Assembly: GCA_964435035.1 (NCBI GenBank)
Contig: CAYSXR010000001.1
Span: 144,192 to 208,191, forward strand
Length of the DNA: 64,000 nt
Reading direction: 5' to 3'
Origin: an uncultured Gammaproteobacteria bacterium
Lineage (GTDB): Bacteria > Patescibacteriota > Patescibacteriia > Magasanikbacterales > UBA922
Shown here: one piece after another, positions 16,570 through 49,375 of the stretch
Numbering within the stretch: the first letter of the stretch is position 1
Layout: the number at the start of each line of letters is the position of its first letter
Notes under the pieces: model-generated
What the model saw: the letters and a program-made list of their open reading frames with translations, nothing else
Told to the model about the DNA's origin: nothing
Databases searched by the model: none
Position numbers and translations under genes: made by a program

Positions 16570-16574
16570 TTTTG

Positions 16575-16647
16575 TGACCCCGGTGGGGATCGAACCCACG
16601 ACCATTGGCTTAAAAGGCCACTGCTCTACCAGCTGAGCTACAGGGTC
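16575..16647 (-). tRNA. tRNA-Lys (anticodon UUU)
   Basis: The reverse complement folds as a cloverleaf: GACCCUG acceptor, GCUCAGCUGGUAGAGC D-arm, anticodon loop CUUUUAA, GGUUCGAUCC T-arm. CCA is not encoded. Confidence 0.9.
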
Positions 16648-19914: not shown

Positions 19915-21360
19915 ATGTCTAAAAGAATAAAACAAACAAAAATCGTTGCAACCATTGGTCCAGCATGTGAAAGTATCGAAATTCTTGAGCGCATGGTACA
20001 TGCAGGTATGAATGTTGCTCGATTGAATTTTTCCCACGGTACTCATGAAAATCATGCGATGCTTATCAAAAATATTCGTGAAGTGGAAAAGCGCACGGGA
20101 GAGCCAGTGGCAATTCTACAGGATTTGCAAGGGCCAAAATTACGACTAGGGGAATTGCCGCCTGAGGGTATTGAAATAGAAAAAGGCACAGAAATTGTGT
20201 TTGCATATAATCCCGAAACATCGGTGGAAATTCCAATTGGTTTTAAAGAATTGTGTGAATTTATGAAACCAGGAGAGCGTATTTTACTCGATGATGGGAA
20301 ATGCGAAGCACGTGTCTTCCGAATTGAAAAAGAAAAAATTATCACCACTGTAGTGGTGGGTGGAAAGCTCACGTCACACAAGGGAATCAATGTGCCTGAT
20401 ACTGATTTGAAAACACTTAAAGTGTTAACTGAAAAAGATAAAGAAGATTTGAAATTTGGTGTAGAACACGGAGTTGATTTGGTCGCATTGTCTTTTGTGA
20501 TGGACGCACAAGATATTCTTGACGTGAAGTTTTTTATTACTGAAATCGAGCAATCAACAAAAAAAGTGGGAAATAATCCAATTCGTATTATTGCAAAAAT
20601 AGAAAAACACGAAGCAGTACAGAAAATTGAAAAAATTATTGATGTTGCTGATGGAATCATGGTGGCACGTGGAGATTTGGGTATTGAAATACCTGCAGAG
20701 GAAGTGCCGCTTATTCAGAAAAGAATTATTGATTTGGCGCGTGAGGGAGCAAAGCCTGTGATTGTAGCAACTCAAATGCTTGATTCTATGCAACATAACC
20801 CTCGTCCGACGCGTGCAGAGGTGTCAGATGTGTCAAATGCGGTAATCGATCATACTGATGCAGTAATGCTTTCAAATGAGACGGCGACAGGAGAATATCC
20901 AGTTGAGACCATTGAAACTATGGCTTCAATCATCCGATCTGCAGAAGAATCAGATTATGATGATGTGAGTGTGGCTACAAGCTCTAGTTCAAAACGAAAA
21001 AATATTGATACGACGATTAGTGGATTATCAAAATTAGTTGCCGAAGAAGTGGGTGCAACATTGATTTTGGCAGCATCACTTTCCGGGGACACAGGTCGTC
21101 TGATCTCAAAATATCGTCCAGAGCTCCCCATTGCTGTTGCTGCAAGCTCGGATCGGGTACTTCGTCAGCTCAATCTTTCATGGGGCGTGAGACCATTTAT
21201 TCTCGAGGAATGCAAAACTATCGAAGAGCTGATTGAACGCTCAATTCTGATACTCAAAGATAGAAAAATGGTAGAAAAAGAAGATCGGATTATTATCGTT
21301 GCTGGGGAGCCAGTTGGGCAAGCAGGACATGTAAATTTACTGGAAGTTCGTGAGGTATAG
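19915..21360 (+). CDS. pyk: Pyruvate kinase
   Basis: 481 aa with TKIVATIGPA...GMNVARLNFSHG, MVARGDLGIEIP and the ATQMLDSM motif. Confidence 0.9.
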   Translation: MSKRIKQTKIVATIGPACESIEILERMVHAGMNVARLNFSHGTHENHAMLIKNIREVEKRTGEPVAILQDLQGPKLRLGELPPEGIEIEKGTEIVFAYNPETSVEIPIGFKELCEFMKPGERILLDDGKCEARVFRIEKEKIITTVVVGGKLTSHKGINVPDTDLKTLKVLTEKDKEDLKFGVEHGVDLVALSFVMDAQDILDVKFFITEIEQSTKKVGNNPIRIIAKIEKHEAVQKIEKIIDVADGIMVARGDLGIEIPAEEVPLIQKRIIDLAREGAKPVIVATQMLDSMQHNPRPTRAEVSDVSNAVIDHTDAVMLSNETATGEYPVETIETMASIIRSAEESDYDDVSVATSSSSKRKNIDTTISGLSKLVAEEVGATLILAASLSGDTGRLISKYRPELPIAVAASSDRVLRQLNLSWGVRPFILEECKTIEELIERSILILKDRKMVEKEDRIIIVAGEPVGQAGHVNLLEVREV

Positions 21361-21472: not shown

Positions 21473-24400
21473 ATGACTAGATTAACATTTTATCGAAGAC
21501 TTTCAATTGTCTCAGGTTTAGTATTGGTATTACTAAACCATTTTGCGTTTGGTTTTTTGGGATTTTTTATTCCAGTCGCAAAGGCCGATGCGATAACATG
21601 GGTAGGTCCATCAACGGGTTATTGGGATAATCCAACAAATTGGAGTAGTGGCACTATACCAACTGCTTCAGATGAGGTGATAATCTCAGGGGACGACATG
21701 TTTATATTAGCAACATCAACTATTAATTTTGCTTCGCTTACTCTTGCGGGTCCTGATGTGCGTTTCAGTCTGTTGGGGGGTATTGGAACTGGAGGTGACC
21801 TTACGATCTCTGAGAGTTTGTTTATACAATCCACGTCAACACGTCAGACGATCAGTGGGACTTTAACAATTAATGATGGGGTGATGCAGCATCTACAAAA
21901 CACTTCAACAACGTTATATAAGCTTGATTTTGTGGCGGAAAATATTGTTATCGAGCCGGGCGGACATGTACGAGTGGATAATGAGGGTTCACCGGGAGGT
22001 GAAATAGGAGAAGACGGGTATGGAAATGGAGGGGGTGATGGAGATTCAAATATAAGTGCTGGTGCAGGTGGAAGCAATGCTGGGACCGGAGGATCGAGTA
22101 GTTCAGGAAACTATGGAGGGTTTTCAACCTGTACTTTTTCTGATGTTGGACCATCCTATGGCGGAAGTGGGGGAGGCGGAAGTGCTACCTCTACTGGAGG
22201 GGATGGGGGAGGATTTGTGCGTCTTGAAGCAAATAATACATTTACGATAAATGGACGTATTACCGCAGACGCTGATCATACTTCGGGGCAGACTGCAGGC
22301 GAAGGTGCGGGGGGTGGATCTGGAGGAACTATTTATCTAGTCGCTGATACGATTAGCGGAGTTCCAGAAGCTCCAATTTCTGCTCGTGGGGGAAATAGTT
22401 TTGATGCAAATGGAGGAGCTGGAGGTGGTGGGTGTGTCCGCTTACAATATACCACAACAAGTACCATCGATGGTGCAAATATTATTGTTGATGGTGGAGT
22501 TGGTTTTGAAAACGGTGGTGCTGGAGTTGCACTGGTAGAAAAAGAAGATCAGTCAATTCGAAAAATGTATGTAACTGCAACAACAACACTTAATTATGGA
22601 GTTGGACAGCTTTATAGCACTGCTGGTACAAATTTTATTTCCTTATCCGGCGCTGAGGAACTCACGACCTTGTCAGTCTCAACTTCTTCTGTATATATCA
22701 TTGGAGATTTTTTAGGTGCAAGTGAACTCACACTTACGGGGGCTACTCCATTTCAAGGCAGTAGTCCATCAGGTACCGTACGAATTCAGGGTGACGTAAA
22801 ATTAAAGCTGTCTTCAGGGGCAAGTATTGAGGATGTAACTCTGGAACTGTATCACGAAGATGTGTCTCGGCGTGCGCGTCTCGTAGATCGTGCTACAGAC
22901 GAATCAGCTACTCTTGATATTGTAATTGGTGACCAAGGGACGCTTCTTTTAAATAATTTCAATTCCACAACTCCCTTGATGGTTGAGACATTTACTGTTG
23001 CAGCCGGTGGAGTCGTGACTCATGAACAAAATAGTATCTCACCGGAACAAAGAGAAATGGTGAATATACAGGCTGAAAATATTACCATTGAGAGTGGTGG
23101 ATCTATTAATGTAGCTGGAAAAGGATACAGTGGGGGTAGAGGTTTAGGAGGTAGTGGCGATGGGCTTGGTGGTGGAGCCTATACGTCGAATGTAGGTGTA
23201 GGTGCGGGACATGGTGGAGATGGTACAGCAAATAATCTTGATGGCTCGTCTGCTGGAGCTGGTGGCACATCATATTGTGATGTTTCTAATCCTTCTACTA
23301 TTGGTTCAGGGGGAAGCTCAGGGTTGTTTAGTGGGAGCTTAGGGCGTAGAGGTGGAAATGGTGGGGGGATGGTATGGCTCGTAGCGACAAATACAATTAC
23401 GCTTGCAGGAGATATTTTTGCAGATGGCGAAAATGGGTCGTTTGACTCGTATGCAGGTGAAGAAACTTTTGAATCTATTTCCGGTGCAGGTTCAGGGGGG
23501 AGTGTAAAATTATTTGCTCCCACTATTGGAGGAGCAGGAGAAATTTTTGTAAGAGGTGGAAATAATGGGGTTGATCCAAGTCCGGCTCCTTCAGAATATG
23601 GCGGAGGCGGAGGCGGATGTGTATTGATAAACTATACGTATGACAATTCAGTTGTCACATCAAGTATATATATTACTGGAGGTGGACTTGATGCTGGGGT
23701 CGCAGAAGATGGACAATTGAGTATTGTGGAAGAAAATGAAGTTCCTGAGTTGTTTTTGAATTTTCATAAACCGGAATTTGTAGCTCGAGTTACAAGTACT
23801 ATTATTGATGGAGCTGGTGACCTGGCAGTTTCGGGCGATTATGCATATGTGGGAGGATTGATGGGTTCGAGTTTTGCGATTATCAATATCTCTAGTACTA
23901 CCAATCCGGCCGTAGTAGGAACCATAGAAACTACATCTGATTTGGCAGGTATATATGGAGTCGAGGTTTCGGGTAATTATGCGTATGTTGTTAATAGTTT
24001 TGACAATAGTTTTCGAGTGATCGATATTTCTAGTAGTACCAACCCGACTATTGTTGCAGGGATAGAGTTCGATACACCGATTCCAGAATTAATGAGCATT
24101 GCAGTATTAGGGAATTATGCTTATGTGATAGTAGGAGAAGATGGATACAGTTCACTCCGTGTGATAAATATTTCAAATCCGCTTTCTCCAACAGTAGTCG
24201 GGAGTATCATTAATGATTCTGACTTAGATTTTCTGAGTGATATTGTAGTTTCTGGAAGTTATGCATATGTTTCAACATTAGCAGCACAGTTTTCAATTAT
24301 TAATATCTCAAATCCAAGTTCGCCTGCCGTGGTAGGAAGTGTGCATGATACAACAATCCTTGATAATTCATTTGGTGTCGCAGTATCAGGAAATTACGCG

Positions 24401-27400
24401 TATGTAACTTCAGATGATAATAGTTCTGTTGCAGTTATTGATATTTCTGATCCAGAGAATCCGGATATAGTGAAAGTGGTGACTGGTGGTGAGTCGATAG
24501 TTGATAGTCTTCGGATGATTGTGATTGAGGGAGATTATGCGTATGTGGGAATGATTAGCCCTAATCCAGGAATTGGGATAATTGATATTACAAATCCACT
24601 CACTGCTAATTTTGTAGGGTATATTTTAGATCCAGATTTACTCACTACGCCAGCTAGAATGCAGGTAGCAGAGGGGGTGGTGTATATGACAGATTTTTCT
24701 GAGGATTCATTGAATATATTTAATGTATCACTGCCTTATTCGGTAAATCCTATTGTTCCATTTGATATTTCAGATGGTGATCGAGAAACACTCTCGGTGA
24801 AGGCAGAGTTTGTTCCTGGATCATGCGCGTACAGTGGTACGACATATGCAACGTTTGTTACCTCGACCGCAACATCAACCTATGGGGTTGCAATAGATAA
24901 TTCTGCAGTTGATAATCGAAGAATTAAAGATATTATCATTGACCCAGTTTCTGATTTTCCAATTACACAAGTAACCACCACATGGCACACCTCAGTAGAT
25001 ATTCCCGGTGATGAAGGGGAATATTGTATGTTTATGACTCCTTATGACGGTGAAGATGAAGGAATACGTGTAGCGGGTACGCTATTTGTCGATGATCCAT
25101 TACTCGCCCCAAACGCCCCTTCTCTCTCTGCCACCAAAACTCAAACCTCGATTACGCTTTCTTGGCCTGTGGCAAATGGGGCTAATCATTATGTGATTGT
25201 ATCAAGTATTTCGGGTATTCCTACAGAAACAGATGAAACTTCGGTGACTTACGCGGGTTTGGTAGCAGGGAATGAATATACTTTTCAGGTTAAATCGGTG
25301 GATAATTATGGTAATGAAAGTGCGTATTCAGAAGTATTTCCTGTTACTACTGTTGCACTAGGATCCTCTCCTCAACCCAGTGCACCCCCTCCTCCGTCAG
25401 ACACCACTCCTTCATCAACGACGACTTCAACGGTCTCGAATCCTTCTAGTCTCATTGTTATTAATAGTGGAGCATACTATACCAAATCACGAGAAGTGAA
25501 CGTGTTATTTAATACTGATTTTACGTCGGCGTATATGCTCGCAGACACTTTTGATTTTTCAGGAAAGATATACAAACCAATCGTTTCCTCAACAACCTAC
25601 ATACTCACTCCAGGAGACGGGGAAAAAAGAATTTATGCTCGTTTTAGTAATAATTATGGTATTTATGATGCGTATGATGTGATTGTGCTTGATACCGTGC
25701 CACCGAGCCAACCTACTATTAATGCAATTAGTTCTCCTGATTTTGTTCTAAAAACTGAAGGAGTGTATGGGCGAAAGAATACGAGTAGTACTGTGCGCAT
25801 CAAACCAACACTTGGAGGTACTGCTGAGCCAGGAAAACGAATTATGATCACTGTCTCCTATGGAGGAACAAATATGGTGATGATGATGTTAGCTGCAGTA
25901 GAAACATACTACACCACTGCAGACAGTAATGGAAATTGGTCGTTTACGTTTCCGAACGAACTTCAAAATACGTATTATACTATTTCGGTACAAACACAAG
26001 ATGAAGCAGAAAATAACTCAAGTGCAGTAGAAATAGAGCTTGACTTACGTAGTCTGGAGACTCTTCCTTGTACTATAAATTGTGAACCATTAGACGAACC
26101 TCCTCTAGAGGAGCCCCCTGAAGATCTGCTGCCAGTCGAAGAGCCATTAGACGAACTTCCTCCTATTGAAACAGCTGAAGAGATTCCTTCCTGTACGATT
26201 GATTGTGGGGGAGAAGAATCTTCACCTGTAGATACGGGAGGAGAGAGTTCAGGTACTGAAGAAGAAAATACAACTGATGCTACGAGTGGAGGTGATACAG
26301 AGGGTAATGTAGACAATAGTTCAAATGAACCAATAGGCGAGCAAGTTATTTCGAGTATTACTGATTCAGTGTCTATTATTTCAGATACAATTGAAACTTT
26401 TTTTACTGAAGTTGGTAACTTATTACAAGAGATACCTATGGTGCGGGGGATAGTAGAAACTGCATCAGTTGCAGTTGAAAAAACGAGAGAAGTTATTGAT
26501 AATCCAACAATTGAAAAAAGTAATGAAGTAATTGCTGCCCCTATAATCGCTGTAGCTGCAGCAGCAAACGTCGCAGTTGGCGGGGCAGGTCTTCTATCAC
26601 AAGCCATGTTGTATCTTCGTCTTATTTTCTCTCAGCCACTACTTTTACTTAAATTGAGAAAGCGTAAAAGGTGGGGTGTGGTATTCAATGCATACACCAA
26701 ATTACCACTTGATTTAGCAACGGTTCGTCTAGTAAATGGAAAAAGTGATTCAATTATAAGAACACAAGTGACTGATGCAAAAGGTAGATATTTTATGGTT
26801 GCTGAAAATGGTGTATATCGACTTGAAGCAAAAAAGGATGGGTTTGGAACTAATGTTAACGTGACTACGGAGGATTCAGCGTTTCCAAATGTGTACCATG
26901 GAGAAGAGTTGGAATTAGCAGAGGAATCGAATAATCTTAATTACAATATCCCACTCGAACCTATCGTAGAAGAAAAATCAAATACGCACGTGCTCCGAGA
27001 ATATGCGAGGAAAGCTACTCATAAAACGGTTAGTTTGATCGGAGCGGTGGCAACCATTGTTTCGCTGATTATTTCTCCGAAGCCATGGATCACTGCATTG
27101 CTTGTATTCCATATTGTCCTGTATAGCCTCATGAGGCGCCTTGCTCATAAAAAGATCAAAGGAACCTTTGGTTTAGTTACTGATAAAAAAACAGGTAAAG
27201 AGATTGGTAAAGTGGTAATCCGTGTTTTTGATGCAGCGTACAATAAGCTAGTTGAAACCGGAGTTACAGATTCAAAAGGTAGGTATGCAATTCTGGTAGG
27301 TCCAAGTATCTACTATATTACTGCAGAAAAAGAAGGTTTTATTACCTATCAATCACCAACGATAGATTTTTCAAGTGAGAAGACGGATGGTCTCGGAGGT

Positions 27401-27466
27401 GTAATTTCTGAGTCATGTAGTTTAAAACCCATTGATTTTCATGAGAAAAATGGCGACACGCTTTGA
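21473..27466 (+). CDS. Giant surface protein: Gly-rich beta-helix, LVIVD repeats, FN3, C-terminal multi-pass anchor
   Basis: 1997 aa with a signal peptide. Gly-rich repeats at about 21.96-23.7 kb. At least 7 LVIVD-type repeats (GNYAYV...IDIS.P..P) at about 23.8-24.7 kb. FN3 at about 25.1-25.35 kb. Acidic Pro-rich linker. TM helices alternate with two CarboxypepD_reg-like segments (TDAKGRY..., TDSKGRY...). Confidence 0.85.
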   Translation: MTRLTFYRRLSIVSGLVLVLLNHFAFGFLGFFIPVAKADAITWVGPSTGYWDNPTNWSSGTIPTASDEVIISGDDMFILATSTINFASLTLAGPDVRFSLLGGIGTGGDLTISESLFIQSTSTRQTISGTLTINDGVMQHLQNTSTTLYKLDFVAENIVIEPGGHVRVDNEGSPGGEIGEDGYGNGGGDGDSNISAGAGGSNAGTGGSSSSGNYGGFSTCTFSDVGPSYGGSGGGGSATSTGGDGGGFVRLEANNTFTINGRITADADHTSGQTAGEGAGGGSGGTIYLVADTISGVPEAPISARGGNSFDANGGAGGGGCVRLQYTTTSTIDGANIIVDGGVGFENGGAGVALVEKEDQSIRKMYVTATTTLNYGVGQLYSTAGTNFISLSGAEELTTLSVSTSSVYIIGDFLGASELTLTGATPFQGSSPSGTVRIQGDVKLKLSSGASIEDVTLELYHEDVSRRARLVDRATDESATLDIVIGDQGTLLLNNFNSTTPLMVETFTVAAGGVVTHEQNSISPEQREMVNIQAENITIESGGSINVAGKGYSGGRGLGGSGDGLGGGAYTSNVGVGAGHGGDGTANNLDGSSAGAGGTSYCDVSNPSTIGSGGSSGLFSGSLGRRGGNGGGMVWLVATNTITLAGDIFADGENGSFDSYAGEETFESISGAGSGGSVKLFAPTIGGAGEIFVRGGNNGVDPSPAPSEYGGGGGGCVLINYTYDNSVVTSSIYITGGGLDAGVAEDGQLSIVEENEVPELFLNFHKPEFVARVTSTIIDGAGDLAVSGDYAYVGGLMGSSFAIINISSTTNPAVVGTIETTSDLAGIYGVEVSGNYAYVVNSFDNSFRVIDISSSTNPTIVAGIEFDTPIPELMSIAVLGNYAYVIVGEDGYSSLRVINISNPLSPTVVGSIINDSDLDFLSDIVVSGSYAYVSTLAAQFSIINISNPSSPAVVGSVHDTTILDNSFGVAVSGNYAYVTSDDNSSVAVIDISDPENPDIVKVVTGGESIVDSLRMIVIEGDYAYVGMISPNPGIGIIDITNPLTANFVGYILDPDLLTTPARMQVAEGVVYMTDFSEDSLNIFNVSLPYSVNPIVPFDISDGDRETLSVKAEFVPGSCAYSGTTYATFVTSTATSTYGVAIDNSAVDNRRIKDIIIDPVSDFPITQVTTTWHTSVDIPGDEGEYCMFMTPYDGEDEGIRVAGTLFVDDPLLAPNAPSLSATKTQTSITLSWPVANGANHYVIVSSISGIPTETDETSVTYAGLVAGNEYTFQVKSVDNYGNESAYSEVFPVTTVALGSSPQPSAPPPPSDTTPSSTTTSTVSNPSSLIVINSGAYYTKSREVNVLFNTDFTSAYMLADTFDFSGKIYKPIVSSTTYILTPGDGEKRIYARFSNNYGIYDAYDVIVLDTVPPSQPTINAISSPDFVLKTEGVYGRKNTSSTVRIKPTLGGTAEPGKRIMITVSYGGTNMVMMMLAAVETYYTTADSNGNWSFTFPNELQNTYYTISVQTQDEAENNSSAVEIELDLRSLETLPCTINCEPLDEPPLEEPPEDLLPVEEPLDELPPIETAEEIPSCTIDCGGEESSPVDTGGESSGTEEENTTDATSGGDTEGNVDNSSNEPIGEQVISSITDSVSIISDTIETFFTEVGNLLQEIPMVRGIVETASVAVEKTREVIDNPTIEKSNEVIAAPIIAVAAAANVAVGGAGLLSQAMLYLRLIFSQPLLLLKLRKRKRWGVVFNAYTKLPLDLATVRLVNGKSDSIIRTQVTDAKGRYFMVAENGVYRLEAKKDGFGTNVNVTTEDSAFPNVYHGEELELAEESNNLNYNIPLEPIVEEKSNTHVLREYARKATHKTVSLIGAVATIVSLIISPKPWITALLVFHIVLYSLMRRLAHKKIKGTFGLVTDKKTGKEIGKVVIRVFDAAYNKLVETGVTDSKGRYAILVGPSIYYITAEKEGFITYQSPTIDFSSEKTDGLGGVISESCSLKPIDFHEKNGDTL

Positions 27467-27627
27467 ATATAATTACCGAAGAAGTAGAAAAGATTGTGTG
27501 ATGTAGTTAGTATGGTCTATTCACAAGAATATATGGGAAGTATTGATTAGTAGCTGGTGTGAATGTTTAAAAGTCGATTTATTAGTAGAATAAACGTATA
27601 CTTATTAGGGTAATCTATTATTACAAC

Positions 27628-29610
27628 ATGAGTAGTTTGATTAAAAAAATAATTTTCGCAGCTTTTCTTCTGTGGCTTGTGCCTTCAGTAATTTTTGCTT
27701 CAGATAGTAATGGTACAATCAATACAAGTCATAAATATGGATGGGGAGAAAACTTGGGTTGGATTAATTTTGCCCCAACTGATGGGTCGAGTAATTATCA
27801 CGGGCTTACCATTACTGATTCTGCTGTTACTGGCTATGCATGGTCAGAAGCCTATGGCTGGATTAATTTTGCTCCAAGTAATGGCGGAGTAACTAATAGC
27901 TGTACCGGACAACTTGGTGGTTGGGCATGGTCTACACAATTGGGCTGGATTTCCATGAGCGGAGTAACAATTGGATCGACCGGAGAATTTAATGGTGTAT
28001 CAGGTGGAACAACGCTTCCTTCGGGTAGAATTACCTTTGATTGTGATAATTGTGATGTGCGTACTGATTGGATTCCTTGCGCTGAGCGTGAAGAAGAAGG
28101 TGGTGGAGGCCCTCCGCCCACCTGTTCCAATGGCGCGTCAGATTATCCAACCTGTACACCACCCACTCCACCAACCTGTTCTAATGGTGCTTCGGATTAT
28201 CCTACCTGCACACCTCCTCCAGATCCCACCTGTTCCAATGGCGCATCAGATTATCCAACCTGTACACCACCCACTCCACCTCCAGATCCAGTCTGCTCTA
28301 ATGGCGCATCAGACTACCCAACTTGTACGCAGCCACCAGATCCCACCTGTTCCAATGGTGCATCAGACTACCCAGCTTGTACTGCCTCTACCGATGGGGG
28401 TGATGGAGGTACCGGAGAGGGTGATGGAGGTGCTAGTGATGGGGGAGAAAGTGAAGGGGCGGGGAGTAGTGGAGGCGGAGGTGGTGGTGTTGCCACAGAA
28501 ATAATTTCAAATATTACTGATTCAGTTGGGGTAGTGGCTGATGCAACAGTAGCTGTTTTGCAAGATGTAGCAGAAGTGCTGGTTACTATTCCCGGAGTAC
28601 AAACTGTAGTTAATGCGGCCCAAGTTGCTATAGAAAGAACAGAAAAAGTTATTAATAATCCTACGGTTGAAAAAATAGATGAAGCAGTTTCAACTCCAGT
28701 GCTCACAGCAACAGCTGTAGTAAACGTAGTAGTAGGTGGTGCAACATTATTTTCGCAGATTTTAATATTTCTCCGTTTATTGTTTTTGCAGCCCTTACTA
28801 TTATTATTCAAACGTCATAAACAAAAAACATGGGGAACGGTTTTCAATAGTCATACAAAGCAACCTCTTGATTTGGCAATGGTGCGTCTGGTGCATGGAG
28901 AAAATGACACAATTGTACGCACCCAGGTGACTGATGCCCAGGGTCGTTATTTTATGGCTGCAGGAAGTGGTACGTATATTTTGAAGACTACTAAAGAAGG
29001 TTTTGGTCCACATAGTGGAACGCAAGCTGAAGATTCGGTATATCCAAATTTGTATCGTGGAGAAAAATTGGAATTAGTGGACAGAGAAAGTGAACTTAAT
29101 TACAACATCCCGCTTGAACCAGTGTATGAGGCAAAGAGTACTGCTGATATAATCAAAGAATATTCGAGAAAAACATTCCAAAAAACGTTGAGTTTGATTG
29201 GTGCAATTGCAACGGTGGCATCACTGATTATTTCTCCAAACATTTGGATGGCTGCTCTTTTGGTAGTACATCTGCTTATCTATGTGGTCATGAAACGGTT
29301 TGCACAAAAAAAAGTAAAAGGTGATCGTGGAATAGTAGTGGATAGTAAAACTAAAAAACCAATGAAGAAGGTGGTGATCCGTGTGTTTGATAATGCATAC
29401 AATAAATTGGTGGACACTGCAATTACTGATAACAATGGGTGTTATGCGGTTCTAGTGGGTCCTAGTACTTATTATATTACTGCAGAAAAAGAAGGGTATG
29501 CTCCATATCAGTCTGATACGATTGATCTAACGAGTAAAAAGACTAATGGAATTGGAGGTGTTATTACAGAAAACTTCTCTTTGATGTCAGTTGATGAAAA
29601 GAAAAAGTAA
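27628..29610 (+). CDS. Surface protein with GW-type repeats, Cys/Pro tandem repeats and the same C-terminal anchor module
   Basis: 660 aa with a signal peptide and 3x YGWxxxLGWINFAP repeats. The tandem-repeat and anchor-module evidence is given under 28123..28383 and in the findings. Confidence 0.8.
   Translation: MSSLIKKIIFAAFLLWLVPSVIFASDSNGTINTSHKYGWGENLGWINFAPTDGSSNYHGLTITDSAVTGYAWSEAYGWINFAPSNGGVTNSCTGQLGGWAWSTQLGWISMSGVTIGSTGEFNGVSGGTTLPSGRITFDCDNCDVRTDWIPCAEREEEGGGGPPPTCSNGASDYPTCTPPTPPTCSNGASDYPTCTPPPDPTCSNGASDYPTCTPPTPPPDPVCSNGASDYPTCTQPPDPTCSNGASDYPACTASTDGGDGGTGEGDGGASDGGESEGAGSSGGGGGGVATEIISNITDSVGVVADATVAVLQDVAEVLVTIPGVQTVVNAAQVAIERTEKVINNPTVEKIDEAVSTPVLTATAVVNVVVGGATLFSQILIFLRLLFLQPLLLLFKRHKQKTWGTVFNSHTKQPLDLAMVRLVHGENDTIVRTQVTDAQGRYFMAAGSGTYILKTTKEGFGPHSGTQAEDSVYPNLYRGEKLELVDRESELNYNIPLEPVYEAKSTADIIKEYSRKTFQKTLSLIGAIATVASLIISPNIWMAALLVVHLLIYVVMKRFAQKKVKGDRGIVVDSKTKKPMKKVVIRVFDNAYNKLVDTAITDNNGCYAVLVGPSTYYITAEKEGYAPYQSDTIDLTSKKTNGIGGVITENFSLMSVDEKKK
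28123..28383 (+). repeat. Five in-frame tandem repeats encoding CSNGASDYPTCT + Pro-rich spacer
   Basis: tgttccaatggcgc(r)tcagattatccaacctgtaca recurs five times with 51-60 bp periods, mostly synonymous variation and variable PPxP spacers. Confidence 0.85.
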
Positions 29611-29664: not shown

Positions 29665-32600
29665 ATGAAATTGAGTATAAAAAAAGGTAAAAATAAAAAA
29701 AATAGTGCACGAGAATCCGCACATATTTTGTGGTTTGAAGAAATTGGAATTACTGATATTCCATTGGTTGGTGGAAAAAATGCGTCATTGGGGGAAATGT
29801 ATACTGGACTCAGATCAAAAAATATTGCAGTTCCGAATGGTTTTGCAATTACCGCAAAAGCGTATTGGGATTTTTTCGAAGCTCATGGATTAAATAAGAT
29901 AATCAAGAAAGAAATTAAAGGATTGAATGTACTTAAAATTAAAGATTTGAATCGAGTGGGAAAAAAGATACGATCACTCATTATTAACGCAAAATTTCCT
30001 GACGATTTACAAAAAGAAATTATTGAAGCGTACGAATCACTTAAAAAACAAGAAGGAGTAACTCATCTTTCAGTAGCGGTGCGATCGAGTGCAACTGCAG
30101 AAGATTTACCTGATGCAAGCTTTGCGGGTCAGCAAGAAACATATTTGAATATCGAAGGCCATGATGAATTATTGATTGCGGTAAAAAAATGTATTGCATC
30201 TCTATTCACTGATCGTGCGATTTCTTATCGTGAAACCAAAGGATTTGATCACATGGCAGTTGCTCTCTCGGTGACCGTGCAGACTATGGTTCGGTCAGAT
30301 GTGGGAGTCTCAGGAGTAATGTTCACGATTGATACTGAATCTGGTTTCCCTGGAGTAGTGCTTATTAATGCGTCATACGGGTTGGGTGAATATGTAGTCA
30401 AAGGTCAGGTAACTCCGGATCAGTTTTATGTGTTTAAAGAAGGTGTAAGAAAAGGGAAATCAGCAATTATCAGTAGAATCTTTGGTTCAAAAGAAGTGAA
30501 GTTGGTATATGGAAAACGCCTCACTACTCAAAATATTGTTCCGGCTGCTGATCGTCATAGATTGTGTATTTCAGATGAAGATGTGCTCACTCTTGCAAAA
30601 TGGGGGATGGAGATTGAGAAATTTTATAATAAAGCCCAAGATATTGAATGGGCAAAAGATGGTGTTACTGGGAAATTATATATCGTTCAGGCACGACCTG
30701 AAACAGTTCAGTCCCAAGCAAATCATGCGGTTATTGAGTCGTACGAGCTGAAAGAAAAAGGAAAATTAATTGCTCGCGGTATCTCAATTGGACAAAAAAT
30801 TGGGGCAGGTGTCGCGCGTATTATCAATGATCCTCGAGACATGAAGCTGTTTAAAAAAGGTGAAGTATTGGTAACCCGTATCACTGATCCTGATTGGGAG
30901 CCGATTATGCGTCTTGCGAGTGCAATTGTAACTGAACAAGGAGGAAAAACAAGTCATGCAGCAATTGTATCTCGTGAATTGGGAGTCCCTTGTGTAGTGG
31001 GTACCAAACAAGCACGTGCACTGATCAAAACAGGAGTAAAAGTAACGGTTTCGTGTGCTGAAAGCGAAGAGGGGCATGTGTATAAAGGCATGCTTCCGTT
31101 TGAAGTAAAAAAAACCACAATTACTGATATTGCAAAGACCAAGACTAAAATCATGATGAATGTGGGAGATCCGGATCATGCATTTGCATTATCATATTTA
31201 CCAAACGATGGAGTAGGACTTGCGCGCGAAGAATTTATATTTTCTAATTTTATTAGAATTCATCCACAAGCTCTCCTTAATTTTGACAAACTTAAAGATA
31301 AAAAAGCAAAAAAGAAAATTTCTGAATTAACTGTCGGGTACAAAGATAAACGCCAGTACGGAGTGGATAAACTCGCCGATGGTATTGCACGTATTGCTGC
31401 TGCATTCTACCCTCGCGATGTCATTGTACGTCTGTCTGATTTCAAAACCAATGAATACGCCACCTTGATTGGGGGGCTCGAATTTGAACCTAAAGAAGAA
31501 AATCCAATGATTGGTTGGCGTGGAGCTTCTCGGTATTATTCAGAGGAATATAAGACTGCATTTGGTATCGAGTGTGAAGCATTGAAAAAAGTTCGAAGCG
31601 ATTGGGGACTCAATAATGTAATTGTCATGGTGCCATTTTGTCGTACTCCAGAAGAAGGGAAGAATGTATTGAAAACCATGGCGGATTTTGGACTCAAACA
31701 AGGTGAAGATAAATTACAGGTCTATGTCATGTGTGAAATCCCATCAAACGTCATACTTGCAGAAGAATTCGCGAAAATTTTTGATGGATTCAGTATCGGA
31801 TCTAATGATTTAACGCAGTTGACGCTTGGGGTAGATCGTGATTCTGCATTAGTAAGCCATGTGTATGATGAGAAGAATAGTGCGGTAATGACACTGATCA
31901 AGCAGGTGATCAGAGTAGCTCATAAACATAAACGAAAAATTGGAATTTGTGGCCAAGCGCCAAGTGATTATCCAGAGTTTGCTGAATTTCTTGTGCGTGA
32001 AGGAATCGATAGCATCTCACTCAATCCAGATACGGTATTAGCAACACGCGCACGCATTGCAAAGACAGAAAAGAAAGTAGGTATGCGTGGCGGTACCACG
32101 AATCATAAATTTTTGACACTAGTATTTCTACTTGGGGTTTGCTCAGCAAGTATGATACTTCTTGGTGGTGGTTGCGGTGCAATCAAATCTGACAATTCGG
32201 TAAATACAATTACAACAGAATTAAGTCCGGCGCAAGTGAGAGCACAGTTTGAAGCGCGTGCATTGAGTGAGGCAGAAGAGCGTATTGAATCGAAACGAAG
32301 CACAATGACTATCTCCTCGCTAGGGTCATTTAAAGTTTCGTATCCACAAACGTGGGCAGTTGAAGAGCTTTCGAGTGTGCCAGGATATATGTTTTCAAAA
32401 CCTGAATCAAAAGCGCAGGTCGTAGTGGTAAAACAGAAAAAGTCTTCGACTACTGTGTCAGATGGTACTTCCTCCGTAGAGACTGCCGATACAGGTTTGT
32501 CTGCTGGAACAGTTGATAAGAATACTGCAAGCTCATACATCATAGTTGGTGAAAATACGCTAGAAGTCGAATATCGAAAAACTGAAGAGGGAACTGTTCT

Positions 32601-32802
32601 TACTGCAGTACATATTCCTCTTGATGAGGAAGAAGAATTATTTGTGTATGGGACACCAGGAAATGAATTTAATGACATTGTAGAAAGTCTTACGTTCACT
32701 GATCCTGAGGTGGCACCACCTCAAATATTACCAGATGCAGGAGAAGCTTGTATCCATGTAACACCTGATTCGGGTGGAAGTGATGCTGTTAGTTGTTACT
32801 AA
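29665..32802 (+). CDS. ppsA: Phosphoenolpyruvate synthase with in-frame C-terminal signal-peptide/lipobox extension
   Basis: VGGKNASLGEM, phospho-His TSHAAIVSRELGVPCVVG and CGQAPSDYPEF. The PpsA-like part ends near aa 806 (..SLNPDTVLATRARIAKTEKK). The frame then continues MRGGTTNHKFLTLVFLLGVCSASMILLGGGCG... for a further 239 aa. Confidence 0.85.
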   Translation: MKLSIKKGKNKKNSARESAHILWFEEIGITDIPLVGGKNASLGEMYTGLRSKNIAVPNGFAITAKAYWDFFEAHGLNKIIKKEIKGLNVLKIKDLNRVGKKIRSLIINAKFPDDLQKEIIEAYESLKKQEGVTHLSVAVRSSATAEDLPDASFAGQQETYLNIEGHDELLIAVKKCIASLFTDRAISYRETKGFDHMAVALSVTVQTMVRSDVGVSGVMFTIDTESGFPGVVLINASYGLGEYVVKGQVTPDQFYVFKEGVRKGKSAIISRIFGSKEVKLVYGKRLTTQNIVPAADRHRLCISDEDVLTLAKWGMEIEKFYNKAQDIEWAKDGVTGKLYIVQARPETVQSQANHAVIESYELKEKGKLIARGISIGQKIGAGVARIINDPRDMKLFKKGEVLVTRITDPDWEPIMRLASAIVTEQGGKTSHAAIVSRELGVPCVVGTKQARALIKTGVKVTVSCAESEEGHVYKGMLPFEVKKTTITDIAKTKTKIMMNVGDPDHAFALSYLPNDGVGLAREEFIFSNFIRIHPQALLNFDKLKDKKAKKKISELTVGYKDKRQYGVDKLADGIARIAAAFYPRDVIVRLSDFKTNEYATLIGGLEFEPKEENPMIGWRGASRYYSEEYKTAFGIECEALKKVRSDWGLNNVIVMVPFCRTPEEGKNVLKTMADFGLKQGEDKLQVYVMCEIPSNVILAEEFAKIFDGFSIGSNDLTQLTLGVDRDSALVSHVYDEKNSAVMTLIKQVIRVAHKHKRKIGICGQAPSDYPEFAEFLVREGIDSISLNPDTVLATRARIAKTEKKVGMRGGTTNHKFLTLVFLLGVCSASMILLGGGCGAIKSDNSVNTITTELSPAQVRAQFEARALSEAEERIESKRSTMTISSLGSFKVSYPQTWAVEELSSVPGYMFSKPESKAQVVVVKQKKSSTTVSDGTSSVETADTGLSAGTVDKNTASSYIIVGENTLEVEYRKTEEGTVLTAVHIPLDEEEELFVYGTPGNEFNDIVESLTFTDPEVAPPQILPDAGEACIHVTPDSGGSDAVSCY

Positions 32803-36417: not shown

Positions 36418-36492
36418 AGTGAAATAGTTCTAAAATAAATAACTCGCACGTAGGAGTTATTCTGGTGGACAGGTTTTTAGTAAAACAATAAG

Positions 36493-36566
36493 CGGGCTGG
36501 ACGGGACTCGAACCCGCAACTTCTGCCGTGACAGGGCAGTGCTCTAACCAGTTGAACTACCAGCCC
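36493..36566 (-). tRNA. tRNA-Asp (anticodon GUC)
   Basis: The reverse complement is GGGCUGGUAGUUCAACUGGUUAGAGCACUGCCCUGUCACGGCAGAAGUUGCGGGUUCGAGUCCCGUCCAGCCCG. Loop is CUGUCAC, discriminator is G, and CCA is not encoded. Confidence 0.9.
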
Positions 36567-38747: not shown

Positions 38748-38774
38748 AAAGGCGCTCTGAGAATCGCGCCTTTT
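38748..38774. terminator. Bidirectional hairpin terminator 3' of tmRNA
   Basis: aaaggcgc-tctgagaatc-gcgcctttt. Confidence 0.65.
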
Positions 38775-38776
38775 CG

Positions 38777-39173
38777 TGGAGATGCCGGGAGTCGAACCCG
38801 GGTCTAGACGGGTTACCCCGATACTCTACATGTGTATCGATGTTTGGTGTTTCGCATACGAATATGAAACATCGAAAAATATCGCATGCTATCGCATGAA
38901 TGGTTTCAACTAACTTCCATACGAACAAAGTTAGTCTACGCTCGAACTAGGGTTGGCACCGTGGATCCACCATCGAGTATCGTGGGTACGATGGTCGTAG
39001 TGATTTAGGCTACAACAGAAGCAAAGCTAGGCATACTGAAAGCTTTCGCTACAGTGTTTTTAGCTCGCTCGAACAAGTTTGCACTTGTGGAATTGCCTAT
39101 TTGTTACAGAGACAGGCACTCTGACATGCATATACAAGATAACAGAATCCATCTATCGAAGCCTGTCATCCCC
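38777..39173 (-). ncRNA. ssrA: tmRNA (SsrA)
   Basis: 5' GGGGAUGACAGGCUUCGAUAG pairs with 3' ..GGGUUCGACUCCCGGCAUCUCCA, giving an acceptor stem with a G3:U pair and a T-arm. An internal tag frame ends ..PSFASVVA-UAA (stop at 39005-39007). It is adjacent to smpB. Confidence 0.9.
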
Positions 39174-43399: not shown

Positions 43400-46240
43400 A
43401 TGGTAGCGATATCCCCCGAACAATCAGTACCGCAAGAATCACGAAAGAAAAAAACACCTGATACGGTAAAAATAGAGAAATATAGTGAGGTGTGGGAGCA
43501 TGCAAAAAATCTGGAGGGTAAAATAAAAAAACTCAAAGAACATGCAATCGATGCGGATGAAATCGGAGAAATAGAAGGTATTCTCAAAGATGCAAAAGGA
43601 TATTTTTCTAGATTTGGAGAGAAAAAAGATAAAGGCAGAAGTGTTGCTCAGCTTGAAGAGAGGCGTAAGGCTGCAGTAGAAAAACTTACTGACCTTAATC
43701 GGCGCATGGTGTCGATGCTTGAAAAATTAGGACAACCAATTCCTAATACTCTTTTGTCGTACAAAGACAGTGGATTTGTTGATATTGTAAAAGAATCTAA
43801 TAAAGAAGGGTTGTCTGAAGAAAAAAAAGAAGAAGTGTCTGAAGTTGTGGGTGCTCATATAATTCAGCCCCCTGAAAATTATTCTAAAGAGTCATTGGGT
43901 GATTCAGAAATTGGTGGTGTGAATAGTATCGAGGCGCCAGAGAAGAAGGAAGAAGTGTTGGTTTCTGCCGAAGAGTCGCCTGTAAATGTACGAGAGGAAT
44001 CATCCTCACCTGAAACACCAATAGAAGATGTTATCAAGATTTCTTCAGGAGGAAAAACATATGAATTCGGCTGGCACGAACAGGTGGTTTACACTACTGC
44101 AAAGGGTAAGCAGCTTGAGTGTATTGTGCTTGGAAAATCAAATGATGAGAATAAGCCGGGGCTTATTTTGAAAGATCTTGAAAAAGGAAAAGTATTTGCT
44201 CTTGGTGCAGATGCGGTTGCAAAACGGGTACATGTTTCTGATGGTGAAATAGTTTCTCCACGTGTAGAAAATAATAAGGCCGATTCTGGTCAATCTGCTG
44301 AAGGTGAAGATATTGATAGAGAAGAAAAAGCTGCTCTTGAAAAAATGAAAAAAGACCAGAGGGAAGTAGAAGAGAAAAAAGCTCAAGAATTAAGTGAATT
44401 ATTAGCACAAGCTGGAAAGTCTGCCGAAGATGACACTTCATTTGTACACACAAGCACAGATGAGAGGGGAAGTTTCGATCAGAAGATGGTTGATAAACTT
44501 GTAGCTGATGGATCGATTGAAAAAATTAACACGTTATTGAAAAATAAATCCGAGGTGTGGGTACAGGAAGATGGTAAATGGTATCAGGGTGTAGTGCAAG
44601 ATATTACCGGAGCACAGGTGGGTGTTACTGTAGGAGAGGAGGGTCGAGAGAAAAAATATTTCTATGTGGATGCTGAAGAATTTTTGGGCATGCAGGATCG
44701 AGCGAAAAAATTGTTGAAATACAAAAAAGAATTAGAGCTTCCCTCGGTGGTGGTGGACACCGAATTCCTCGCTCGTCCAGATACGATCACCAAAGGTGAA
44801 ATTTTTACTCCTCCGACCGAGAGAAAGACCGTACCTGACGTGCCTCTAGTGAGTATTGATACTCCATTGCCGGTACGAGAACGAAAAACCTACCCAGAAG
44901 TTTCAGAAAAAAAAGCAATACAGATGATTCAATCAGTCGCTGAAGAATTTGAAAAAACATGGAAAGGAATGCGCATGATGACGACAGAAAAACAAAAGAC
45001 CGGATGGCTCCAGAGTAAGGAAGTTGAACGAGAGATGACGGTGACAGAAAAAAAGGAGCAATTAGAAGCGTGGCTTGATATGGTGGAGCAGGCATTTGAT
45101 TCACTCGACAAGCAAAAAGATGGGACACACATGGAAAAACCAGTACTCATGTGGCATCAGGCACAGGCATTAATTCGCGCATTAGAAAATGAACTTCGGT
45201 ATACAGAAGAAACGAATAAAAGTGAAGAGTGGGATCACGCACTTGAGGCTTTTAGTAGTATAATTAATGAAAGAAGCACACGTCTCAAGGAAAAAAAGAA
45301 AGGGTCATTGATTGCACCGTGGGCCATGAAAACGACACTTGCTGCCTTGGGTGCTTTTGCAATCGGAAATGCAACAAACAATCGAATAGAAGATGTGGCT
45401 GCAGTGAGTGAACGATATATGGAAGCAGGTGAAAAAAAATATGAATTACCCAGAGAAGAACATACGGGTGATGCACAGAGAAATATGCTAGATTTTGTAA
45501 TTAATATGAATCGGATGATAAACGAGCCCACACTTTCGATAACACCCGTTGCAATTGATGCTCGACTTACTCCACAGATCAAGGATAAAATATCAGGGAA
45601 AGTTCCGGGTTTGGCTGGTGCAGAAATAGCATCTGATGGAAAATCAGTTACATTGACTTTTGATAATAACCAAACAGTTGAAAGTCGTCCTGAAAAAATA
45701 CAAAAGTCGGGTCGCGATAGTTGGAAACTGAAGACAGCTGAGAAAAAGGGTCCGGAGTATGGCGAACAAATGTTGAGAGAATTAAGGAAAGTATTGGGTG
45801 AAGTAAAGCAAGAGTTTCCTGATATGTTTCGTGGACCAGAATCATCTTCCAAGCAAAAGAGAGTAGTAAGAACAGTAGTACAGGCCGAAAAGAAATTACG
45901 AGAAGCAGAGGTAGTAATACCGAGAAGTGGTGAGGCGAGAAGACAGTTGGAACAAGTAAAACAGGTGTTGGAACAAGTAAAACCAGGACTCGAATCTATT
46001 TCAAAAGAGATTGTAGATGAGATTAAGGCAGAGGATCTCGAATTGCCACAGGATGTATTTGTGCGTTTTAGTCGAGAGGTTACGTTTGATCCAAAGGCAG
46101 ATGCTCTATTTGAGGAATGGGGAAATGCACGAAATTCTCTCAAAGCAGCACAGGAAGCAGGAGATCAAGAGGGGGTAAAGAAAAGTAACGAGGAGTTGCG
46201 TAAGGTTATTGAAAAAATAACGAAAGAGTATAGTAAATAA
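43400..46240 (+). CDS. Large charged hypothetical protein with two SH3/Tudor-like beta segments
   Basis: About 946 aa, rich in Lys/Glu coiled-coil-like stretches, with one central hydrophobic segment (TTLAALGAFAIGNA). ATG 43400 preferred over GTG 43394. Confidence 0.6.
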   Translation: MVAISPEQSVPQESRKKKTPDTVKIEKYSEVWEHAKNLEGKIKKLKEHAIDADEIGEIEGILKDAKGYFSRFGEKKDKGRSVAQLEERRKAAVEKLTDLNRRMVSMLEKLGQPIPNTLLSYKDSGFVDIVKESNKEGLSEEKKEEVSEVVGAHIIQPPENYSKESLGDSEIGGVNSIEAPEKKEEVLVSAEESPVNVREESSSPETPIEDVIKISSGGKTYEFGWHEQVVYTTAKGKQLECIVLGKSNDENKPGLILKDLEKGKVFALGADAVAKRVHVSDGEIVSPRVENNKADSGQSAEGEDIDREEKAALEKMKKDQREVEEKKAQELSELLAQAGKSAEDDTSFVHTSTDERGSFDQKMVDKLVADGSIEKINTLLKNKSEVWVQEDGKWYQGVVQDITGAQVGVTVGEEGREKKYFYVDAEEFLGMQDRAKKLLKYKKELELPSVVVDTEFLARPDTITKGEIFTPPTERKTVPDVPLVSIDTPLPVRERKTYPEVSEKKAIQMIQSVAEEFEKTWKGMRMMTTEKQKTGWLQSKEVEREMTVTEKKEQLEAWLDMVEQAFDSLDKQKDGTHMEKPVLMWHQAQALIRALENELRYTEETNKSEEWDHALEAFSSIINERSTRLKEKKKGSLIAPWAMKTTLAALGAFAIGNATNNRIEDVAAVSERYMEAGEKKYELPREEHTGDAQRNMLDFVINMNRMINEPTLSITPVAIDARLTPQIKDKISGKVPGLAGAEIASDGKSVTLTFDNNQTVESRPEKIQKSGRDSWKLKTAEKKGPEYGEQMLRELRKVLGEVKQEFPDMFRGPESSSKQKRVVRTVVQAEKKLREAEVVIPRSGEARRQLEQVKQVLEQVKPGLESISKEIVDEIKAEDLELPQDVFVRFSREVTFDPKADALFEEWGNARNSLKAAQEAGDQEGVKKSNEELRKVIEKITKEYSK

Positions 46241-46261
46241 CATTTTGATATAGAGAAGAAA

Positions 46262-46297
46262 AATCACTGATAGCAGTCGGTGATTTTTTGTTTTTTT
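46262..46297 (+). terminator. Rho-independent terminator
   Basis: aatcactga-tagcag-tcggtgatt hairpin, then ttttttgttttttt. Confidence 0.75.
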
Positions 46298-46416
46298 AAG
46301 GTGTTTGGGCTAGAAATGTGCTAAAAAGTATGAGAGTAGTCAAAAGGGGCTACACCCTTTACTTTTTGTCAAAATTTGCATAAAGTACGTTAATGCTTAT
46401 TGTGGCAGGGGTATAC

Positions 46417-46445
46417 TTGACAAAAAGGTATAAATATGCTATAGT
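46417..46445 (+). promoter_or_regulatory. Consensus sigma70-type promoter (TTGACA-17-TATAGT) driving the GC-rich island
   Basis: acTTGACAaaaaggtataaatatgcTATAGTac is near-identical in layout to the promoter at 63780-63808. Confidence 0.7.
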
Positions 46446-46655
46446 ACTGCGTTATTTCAAAAGCCCTACATAGGTCTTCGAAATAGCAATCCAGGGGCCC
46501 CATCAGAGAGGATATGTGTCCCTTCTGATGGAGTCCCTGGTCTAGGAGCTCCCACTGTGGCCCGTTCGGGCAATAGTGAGAGCCTTAGGCTCATTACAAT
46601 CGAAGAAGCTAGAACACGTGCCCCTATGAAAGGGGTGTAAACGAGGAGATCAGAA
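46446..46655 (+). promoter_or_regulatory. Structured 5' leader of about 200 nt
   Basis: Nested helices ccaggg[ccatcaga...tctgatgg]ccctgg, gcccg-tt-cgggc, gagcc-tta-ggctc, and cccct-atgaa-agggg just before SD gaggag. No known riboswitch recognised. Confidence 0.45.
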
Positions 46656-48104: not shown

Positions 48105-48119
48105 ACCTCAACCCAACTA

Positions 48120-48145
48120 GTCCGACCTCCCTCGGGAGGTCGGAC
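48120..48145 (+). other. Intercistronic GC hairpin
   Basis: gtccgacctcc-ctcg-ggaggtcggac forms a perfect 11-bp stem between island genes a and b. No T-run, so probably not a full terminator. Confidence 0.5.
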
Positions 48146-48159
48146 ACAGGAGAACAGAC

Positions 48160-49095: not shown

Positions 49096-49346
49096 ACTTC
49101 AAGATTCGGGGAGTGTCTCTACTCCCCGGACCCCTCACCTCGCCGACTTCAAGGCAGAAGGGATAAGACAATGAGACAAACACTCGAGTAAACGGCGTGG
49201 TCGCACAACGCGGCCCCCAATACTGGAGCATGGGCGATATTTCGAAAGAAATGTCGCCCCTCGCACAGCGTATATCAGTCTCTGGTATGCGATGACGAGA
49301 AAAGCATCTCACGTAAATCCCGACTAAATCGGGACACGTGACAAGC

Positions 49347-49375
49347 TTGACAAACGAGAGTATTTATGCTATACT
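49347..49375 (+). promoter_or_regulatory. Consensus sigma70-type promoter (TTGACA-17-TATACT)
   Basis: gcTTGACAaacgagagtatttatgcTATACTaag, located inside an AT-rich spacer of the GC-rich island. Confidence 0.7.

Follow-up and report, generated by a model that had tools for sequence, protein, structure and literature searches.

Two adjacent surface proteins share a C-terminal multi-pass module, a predicted membrane anchor widespread in the Candidate Phyla Radiation

Two neighboring genes on the forward strand of the 64-kb window (64,000 nt in all; coordinates count from its first letter) encode proteins with signal-peptide-like N-termini that share a conserved C-terminal module of about 375 residues. 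In the favored reading, which is given a probability of about 55%, each of the two open reading frames (ORFs), ORF A and ORF B, carries one copy of a three-pass C-terminal anchor that occurs throughout the Candidate Phyla Radiation (CPR, Patescibacteria) on unrelated Sec-exported surface proteins. What appears to be new is this widespread CPR form of C-terminal membrane anchor of surface proteins.

ORF A (21473–27466, + strand, 1997 aa) starts with a signal-peptide-like N-terminus (aa 1–38, AKA|DA), followed by a Gly-rich β-helix-like region, LVIVD β-propeller repeats, fn3, Big_13, an acidic/Pro-rich linker and the C-terminal module. Pfam assigns six LVIVD stretches, fn3 and Big_13 to its passenger. 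ORF B (27628–29610, + strand, 660 aa) has a signal-peptide-like N-terminus (aa 1–24, IFA|SD), a Trp/Gly-repeat domain without Pfam match (aa 25–160), tandem Cys-containing repeats (CSNGASDYPTCTPP..), a Gly/Asp/Glu linker and the C-terminal module. The original prediction spoke of two adjacent giant surface proteins; this description fits ORF A, but not the 660-residue ORF B.

Residues 1621–1992 of ORF A align by BLASTP with residues 288–660 of ORF B (205 of 373 identical, 55%; 75% positives; one gap of a single residue; E=9e-123). This is the single significant high-scoring segment pair. All other pairs have E>1, and the passengers are therefore unrelated. The shared module comprises the last 373–377 residues of both proteins in collinear order, and the aligned residues correspond to nt 26333–27463 in ORF A (+ strand, aa 1621–1997) and 28489–29607 in ORF B. 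In tblastn searches with either module, these are the only two copies in the window. The formal alignment thus bears out the collinear similarity and the unrelated passengers that the original prediction had seen by eye, and its boundaries lie within 8 nt of those given there.

ORF A and ORF B each contain every element of the family module in addition to the N-terminal signal and the C-terminal module position. According to the family profile, the module opens with about 55 residues of amphipathic helix with a 3–4 spacing of hydrophobic residues and then the motif (D/N)NPxVE. In ORF B this segment (28489–28677, + strand, aa 288–350) ends in the motif and is modeled by AlphaFold2 as helices with a low predicted local distance difference test score (pLDDT). 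The consensus continues with a Pro (98%), an Ala/Val-rich stretch in which an Asn is conserved, a break rich in Gly and the helix L-(R61%/Q25%)-x-L-F(90%)-x-Q(91%)-P(94%)-LLLL, which is followed by RRKRK-x-W(97%)-G(99%). The corresponding hydrophobic region 1 was located by hydropathy in ORF A (26519–26656, + strand, aa 1683–1728), where an Ala/Val-rich segment and the helix ...LYLRLIFSQPLLLL precede KLRKRKR. In ORF B (28678–28815, + strand, aa 351–396) it consists of Pro357, the Ala/Val-rich stretch and the helix FSQILIFLRLLFLQPLLLLF, the predicted first transmembrane helix (TM1), followed by KRHKQK.

The middle of the module is occupied by a β-sandwich that ends in NIPLDP and by a Lys/Arg-rich helix. 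This transthyretin/CarboxypepD_reg-like sandwich 1 was placed in ORF A by alignment to ORF B and by the family profile (26675–26962, + strand, approximately aa 1735–1830); in ORF B (28834–29121, + strand, aa 403–498) it is recognized as CarbopepD_reg_2/CarboxypepD_reg by Pfam and modeled with pLDDT >90. A Lys-rich pre-helix and a transmembrane hairpin follow in ORF A (26981–27145, + strand, approximately aa 1837–1891; ISPK turn, conserved His1880) and in ORF B (29140–29304, + strand, aa 505–559; ISPN turn, conserved His548). In the consensus, TM2 contains a Gly (89%) and a Ser (75%), the turn is (S/T)-P(98%), and TM3 contains His69%/Gln27% and then Tyr/Phe. The motif R-R-L-A-x-P-K-K-P-K-x-W-G leads into sandwich 2, which spans 27170–27424 in ORF A (+ strand, approximately aa 1900–1984; from the alignment to ORF B and a weak NOMO1-like match at 1910–1958) and 29329–29583 in ORF B (+ strand, aa 568–652; Pfam CarboxypepD_reg at 567–640, pLDDT >90).

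The sandwiches fit the seven-stranded β-sandwich fold. In ORF B the CarboxypepD_reg match (PF13620/PF13715) covers the stretches 403–462 and 567–640 with 58.7 bits against a cut-off of 32.3. ORF A yields only a sub-threshold NOMO1-like match (20.7 against 27), the same region being 55% identical to ORF B. In both proteins hydropathy places one hydrophobic region before sandwich 1 and a hairpin between the sandwiches. AlphaFold2 with 14 sequences gave two confident β-sandwiches and a helical hairpin (pLDDT 65.8). With 63 sequences (pLDDT 79.8; sandwiches >90, hairpin 83–92), three long helices are present at module residues 85–110, 218–248 and 252–272, and the Ala/Val-rich stretch (module residues 65–84) is unstructured (pLDDT <50). 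Coevolving pairs in ORF B match an antiparallel hairpin (i+j about 592). Hydropathy, family profile and structure prediction thus agree with the proposed order of amphipathic segment, transmembrane helix, sandwich, transmembrane hairpin and sandwich.

The two halves of the module match each other in hhalign with a probability of 99.6% (E=1.2e-24), and from this alignment we conclude that they arose by internal duplication. The junction of basic cluster, WG and sandwich is in register in both halves; the preceding helices align at low confidence.

The further carriers that the original prediction proposed to look for are numerous. A word-indexed search supplied a first set of 12 homologs, of which the named ones belong to Candidatus Magasanikbacteria except for one partial 'Kapabacteria' entry. 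An exhaustive search of 1.84 billion cluster representatives with a 14-sequence HMMER profile (profile A1) returned 6056 matches at E<=1e-3, 3927 at E<=1e-10 and 2033 at E<=1e-30. The module is found at the C-terminal end in nearly all 150 matches listed. Across 158 sequences (the listed profile matches, the word-search homologs, ORF A and ORF B), the module is followed by a median of 1 residue, and carrier length reaches 3595 aa. The passenger domains are diverse and of extracellular type. Among 28 representatives, 19 have fn3 in the passenger; Big_13, FG-GAP, TSP_3, NHL, Laminin_G_3, DUF11 and others also occur. An N-terminal hydrophobic signal is present in 95 of 116 apparently full-length carriers. 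The description of the module as a portable C-terminal cassette grafted onto different passengers is therefore well founded. All retrieved carriers bear source names that read 'hypothetical protein' or give a generic domain label.

When one genome per GTDB species was scanned with two peptide patterns from a 7-sequence alignment, 198 loci were confirmed; titles, neighbors and operons described here were drawn from the best 77 of these. Informative titles among the 77 name Magasanik-, Parcu-, Falkow- and Buchananbacteria, Paceibacter and 'Patescibacteria group'. Many others read 'uncultured Gammaproteobacteria'. These are read as placeholder labels because gene content and neighbors agree with those of Magasanikbacteria contigs. 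The exception, a 7.9-kb contig filed under Vicinamibacterales, is probably mis-binned. All named carriers are from Patescibacteria with the exception of two short contigs of metagenome-assembled genomes. Several assemblies contain two or three module loci, and tandem carrier pairs also occur in loci L018, L022 and L051.

Apart from the CarboxypepD_reg-type sandwiches, Pfam finds nothing in the module. NCBIfam has no model for it and no curated sorting signal that matches. A PDB sequence search with the family profile gave no hit below E=0.02, and comparison with PDB folds recovered the β-sandwich only. LPxTG and its variants, PEP and PGF motifs are absent from both proteins in a regular-expression search. 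There is no Pfam match to S-layer-homology (SLH) domains at E<=1 in either ORF and none to an autotransporter β-barrel translocator, the membrane part being predicted helical. The module is thus none of the LPXTG, S-layer-homology, PEP-CTERM and autotransporter anchors, as originally proposed. Full-text literature searches, which are limited in coverage, yielded no description of it, and the family is apparently unnamed and CPR-restricted.

The closest formal parallels are the sorting signals of the LPXTG/sortase, PEP-CTERM/exosortase and PGF-CTERM/archaeosortase systems. These are likewise C-terminal, are attached to many unrelated secreted passengers, occur as several paralogs per genome and combine a conserved motif with a hydrophobic stretch and an Arg/Lys cluster. 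The module might be a sorting signal (DNPxVE/hydrophobic/RRKRK) that a dedicated sortase-, exosortase- or rhomboid-like enzyme recognizes and cleaves, with the wall or a lipid as the acceptor of the passenger. The tripartite layout, the strongly conserved (D/N)NPxVE, Pro115 and FxQP, and the exceptional constraint on hydrophobic region 1 (dN=0 between ORF B and its ortholog in locus L001) speak for such a signal. So does the best NCBIfam match in the membrane part, to the hydrophobic portion of the LAETG signal, which is very weak (15.2 bits where the cut-off is 30; E=0.013). However, the motif before the hydrophobic segment is (D/N)NPxVE and not an LPXTG-like pentapeptide. The hydrophobic segment and RRKRK are present as in an LPXTG-type end, yet about 270 well-conserved residues come after them, comprising two folded domains and two helices. 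Known sorting signals end at the basic cluster. The module also differs in having its own motif, no match to a curated model and no processing enzyme nearby: no sortase-, exosortase- or rhomboid-like gene was found among the scanned window ORFs (>=150 aa), and none of these and no exporter-like gene recurs among the neighbors in the best 77 of 198 loci. Cleavage and sorting is therefore a very improbable explanation. Because some 270 folded residues follow the basic cluster, the module has the look of an anchor that stays in place and not of a signal that is cleaved off; a permanent membrane anchor is what it very probably is. Of the 'anchoring or sorting cassette' first proposed, anchoring is retained as a prediction from sequence, while sorting finds no counterpart among the scanned window ORFs (>=150 aa) or the recurrent neighbors in the 77 loci.

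A universal conserved neighbor (sortase, exporter or partner) was considered and rejected after clustering of the neighbors in the best 77 of 198 loci. The sole recurrent neighbors there are LVIVD giants, a C2–C3 pair in one subfamily and glycolytic genes, the last of which reflect synteny. The search for a co-occurring sortase, exporter or partner, which the original prediction had proposed, thus had a negative outcome in these loci.

Further comparisons concern parts of the module. Known CarboxypepD_reg/transthyretin-like domains (PF13620, PF13715; relatives in NOMO, CnaB and SdrD-B) are soluble and belong to extracellular or luminal proteins. The module sandwiches, in contrast, are interspersed with transmembrane helices as part of a fixed unit of basic cluster, WG and sandwich that occurs in duplicate, and their predicted location is the cytoplasm. 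SlaB, the membrane-bound Sulfolobus S-layer stalk (PDB 8qox_B), has extracellular sandwiches but is a protein of its own, held by one C-terminal transmembrane helix; the likeness is limited to one domain, without sequence relationship. Trimeric autotransporter adhesins and similarly anchored adhesins also combine a variable passenger, a helical stalk and a conserved C-terminal anchor that bears pulling forces. Their anchors are outer-membrane β-barrels that also export the passenger, whereas the module is helical, its passenger has its own Sec signal and its hosts are CPR.

A likeness to the WxL/WxL-interacting-protein (CscA-like) operons of Firmicutes lies in the operon of a divergent subfamily, seen in about 20 of the best 77 loci (L039, L046, L049, L050, L055–L059, L062–L067, L069, L071–L076; e.g. 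L059 1706–12044). This conserved operon encodes a small secreted protein of ~230 aa without Pfam match, a second small secreted protein of ~310 aa and then the module carrier, usually followed by a giant LVIVD protein. The ~310-aa protein ends in a transmembrane segment and KKRKK and has a WxLIP_PGBD match (E=8.5e-4). The likeness is restricted by the fact that this match is sub-threshold, that no WxL domain was detected and that the operon is not in the window.

The topology of the module was deduced from the charges that flank its hydrophobic segments. Per 15-residue flank, the mean number of Lys and Arg is 1.5 before hydrophobic region 1 (Asp and Glu 3.0) and 5.0 after it; for the hairpin it is 4.0 on the N-terminal side, 0.26 within the turn and 3.7 on the C-terminal side. 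These charges fit one N-out/C-in pass and then an in-out-in hairpin. The positive-inside convention applies since single-pass anchors in related loci end in a transmembrane segment and KKRKKRRI. Lys and Arg make up 15.7% and 17.5% of the sandwiches, 13.5% of the cytoplasmic enzymes of the window and 4.3% of the passengers. The corresponding values for Ser, Thr, Asn, Gly and Gln are 26–27%, 24.5% and 40%. Cys amounts to 0.20% in the module versus 1.49% in the passengers. In fused giant carriers, a pair of transmembrane segments with a basic loop in between preserves parity. The long C-terminal tails of some homologs, disordered and rich in Lys, Glu and Pro, also fit an internal location. The precomputed Pfam lists contain no fused domain of cytoplasmic type by which the topology could be fixed. 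Flank charges, composition and the AlphaFold2 model together favor the cytoplasm, and the sandwiches are probably located there, which is contrary to the cell-surface location implied by the original prediction.

Several observations weigh against a three-pass topology with internal sandwiches. The fold of the module sandwiches is typically extracytoplasmic. The helices of region 1 are both marginally hydrophobic on a Hessa-type scale (family median +3 to +5 kcal/mol; about 0 for the second helix of ORF B). The coevolution analysis recovered the TM2–TM3 register and nothing more. Furthermore, the duplication suggests that region 1 may form a hairpin equivalent to TM2–TM3.

The same anchor could lie entirely outside, with both hydrophobic regions dipping into or traversing the membrane as helical hairpins from its outer face. 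The basic sandwiches would then form a pedestal in the space that separates the membrane from the wall or S-layer and would bind the head groups of anionic lipids, peptidoglycan or teichoic-acid-like polymers. Such an arrangement would leave about 12.7 flanking Lys and Arg residues outside and about 0.3 inside, contrary to the positive-inside rule. Moreover, the N-flank of region 1 is acidic and both flanks of the hairpin are basic, which fits one pass plus a hairpin and not two equivalent hairpins. The deeper AlphaFold2 model has three helices, and the composition of the sandwiches resembles that of cytoplasmic proteins, unlike the passengers. An all-outside arrangement is thus unlikely, though it is the most probable of the competing explanations.

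With the favored three-pass topology, the following architecture can be proposed. The N-terminal signal peptide would direct Sec export of the passenger and the amphipathic helices would form a membrane-proximal stalk outside the cell. The helix ...L(R/Q)xLFxQPLLLL with RRKRK would act as a stop-transfer transmembrane segment that keeps the transthyretin-like sandwich 1 in the cytoplasm. The next two helices would insert as a hairpin with the tight, uncharged Ser-Pro turn outside, and sandwich 2, with a Lys/Glu-rich disordered tail in some homologs, would again be cytoplasmic. Two mechanically stable sandwiches beneath the membrane would work as a rivet, as pulling out an adhesin would require that they unfold. 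The anchor would in this way hold large adhesin-like or enzyme-like passengers at the surface and may offer docking sites to cytoplasmic partners.

Homologs P0081, P0102, P0145, P0048, P0144, P0065, P0069 and P0010 have 60–237 residues past sandwich 2. These C-terminal tails are disordered, rich in Lys, Glu and Pro, and contain the recurring short motifs IPWELxxLQK, ELxRLR(Y/K)E, GTDKESYYD(L/V)DVL and EFDFxx(L/M)xExAQYG, which look like partner-binding peptides. The polar residues within the membrane, the invariance of region 1 between close orthologs and the motif-bearing tails suggest that the module does more than anchor passively, through specific helix packing or the binding of partners. 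Mycoplasma P1-type adhesins and eukaryotic integrins likewise join a large ectodomain across the membrane to cytoplasmic parts, as the module would in the favored topology; they have single-pass anchors and no homology to it. A more speculative and rather doubtful extension is a CPR-specific, integrin-like transmembrane coupler, in which the two cytoplasmic transthyretin-like domains and the tails would link surface adhesins to cytoplasmic partners. The adhesins may contact the host cell, and the bacterium could then reinforce their attachment mechanically, position it or sense it from within. The polar intramembrane residues (Arg/Gln, Gln-Pro and His/Gln) would then serve helix packing or signaling and not passive anchoring.

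Orthologs of ORF B are found in L001, L002 and P0004. BLAST aligns ORF B with its L001 ortholog in two segments (86% identity over aa 165–660 and 73% over aa 1–252). Nei-Gojobori dN/dS values for this pair are 0.045 for the passenger, 0.086 for the linker, 0.21 for the amphipathic segment (the highest among the module parts), 0 for hydrophobic region 1 (46 of 46 residues identical, with a proportion of synonymous differences, pS, of 0.54), 0.044 for sandwich 1, 0.066 for the hairpin and 0.14 for sandwich 2. ORF B is a real gene under purifying selection. The Trp/Gly-repeat domain, which has no match in Pfam and NCBIfam, is strongly constrained (94% identity, dN/dS 0.045 versus L001).

In the passenger of ORF B (window 27700–28490, aa 25–287), the Trp/Gly-repeat domain of ~135 aa (...GWGENLGWINFAP...GYAWSEAYGWINFAP...) is followed by about six tandem copies of CSNGASDYPTCT(P/Q)PP(D)P. 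The L001 copy of this repeat region is broken by an assembly gap (an X run in the translation) and the copy number may differ.

Full-length orthologs of ORF A are present in L003 (61% identity) and L004 (45%). Between ORF A and L003 the passenger is 64% and the module 58% identical. The idea that the module is more conserved than the passenger was therefore rejected for this pair; the dN/dS comparison proposed at the outset gives 0.045 for the ORF B passenger and 0–0.21 for the parts of its module.

The two genes lie between pyruvate kinase (19915–21360), upstream of ORF A, and phosphoenolpyruvate (PEP) synthase (PpsA, 29665–32802), downstream of ORF B. The order ORF B, PpsA, SLT-like gene, orf189 and ABC-F is kept in L001 and L002, where PpsA is 95% and 90% identical, and the A-type orthologs in L003 and L004 lie in other gene contexts. 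In the closest relative (L001 1–4905, CAYUTO010000002.1) the gene upstream of the ORF B ortholog encodes an LVIVD protein of >1634 aa with 20 repeats. It has no module and ends in Peptidase_S74, the 'chaperone of endosialidase' intramolecular chaperone known from phage tail spikes. From these gene orders, the slot upstream of ORF B holds alternative C-terminal solutions. Because ORF B is kept while the upstream gene differs between genomes with 95%-identical PpsA, the region is considered a fast-turning-over surface-protein locus. A promoter and terminator scan of the locus was not informatively above shuffled expectation.

Since ORF A and ORF B are adjacent, their similarity might also be a mere local tandem duplication or gene conversion without wider significance. 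Module identity between A-type and B-type copies (58–61%) matches that among A-type orthologs (59–61%), and some exchange between paralogs is possible; no conclusion on gene conversion is drawn from the identities of 55–61% among the A-type and B-type copies of this lineage. A local event is refuted as a sufficient explanation by thousands of carriers in several CPR lineages with unrelated passengers. Furthermore, A-type and B-type genes lie apart in the L003/L012 genome and the L001 slot upstream of ORF B is filled by the module-free LVIVD protein. Local origin as the whole explanation is thus hardly credible.

CPR bacteria represent a large share of bacterial diversity and many are presumed to live on other cells. 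The module provides one recognizable handle on their surface proteome. Its profile flags thousands of candidate adhesins and surface enzymes now filed as 'hypothetical' in CPR genomes, it marks paralogous, fast-turning-over surface loci, and it is a concrete construct for work on topology, localization and surface display. If the cytoplasmic placement of the two transthyretin-like domains is true, the anchor architecture is unusual and coupling between inside and outside is possible.

Stand-alone module proteins were considered as proof of autonomy and rejected. P0006 (427 aa) is an assembly-gap artifact: at its locus a 1513-aa passenger ORF is split off merely by an N run. This N run lies within ECVGEDCVEP repeats (L078 4737–4836, CAZFTR010000001.1) and cuts a carrier of ~1950 aa into two called genes. 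Other short family members are probably truncated too, and short 'stand-alone' database entries of this family deserve distrust. Three giant carriers (P0065 aa 2370–2480, P0068 aa 780–880, P0143 aa 275–320) contain an internal pair of transmembrane segments connected by a basic loop, which looks like the C-terminal anchor of one protein joined to the signal peptide of the next, the two genes having merged.

The PEP synthase downstream of ORF B (29665–32802; PPDK_N, PEP-utilizers, PEP-utilizers_C) has an extra C-terminal region of ~240 aa with a hydrophobic helix (...FLTLVFLLGVCSASMILLGGG...) and a Ser/Thr-rich domain. The long form is kept in relatives (1044–1061 aa in L001, L002 and L022). 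A membrane-tethered PpsA, if true, would be unusual.

A 10-kb island at 46000–56000 has a GC content of 0.55–0.58 versus ~0.40 elsewhere in the window and is not rRNA. Its products are secreted repeat proteins rich in Cys and Asp that carry TSP_3 and Dicty_CTDC-like repeats (e.g. 52954–55041), and long ORFs overlap on both strands. Horizontal acquisition or a chimeric assembly could account for the island. The window also contains a tmRNA (38774–39173, − strand, tag ANLFERAKNTVAKAFSMPSFASVVA), tRNA-Lys(UUU) (16574–16647, − strand) and tRNA-Asp(GUC) (36492–36566, − strand), which are ordinary features without relation to the module.

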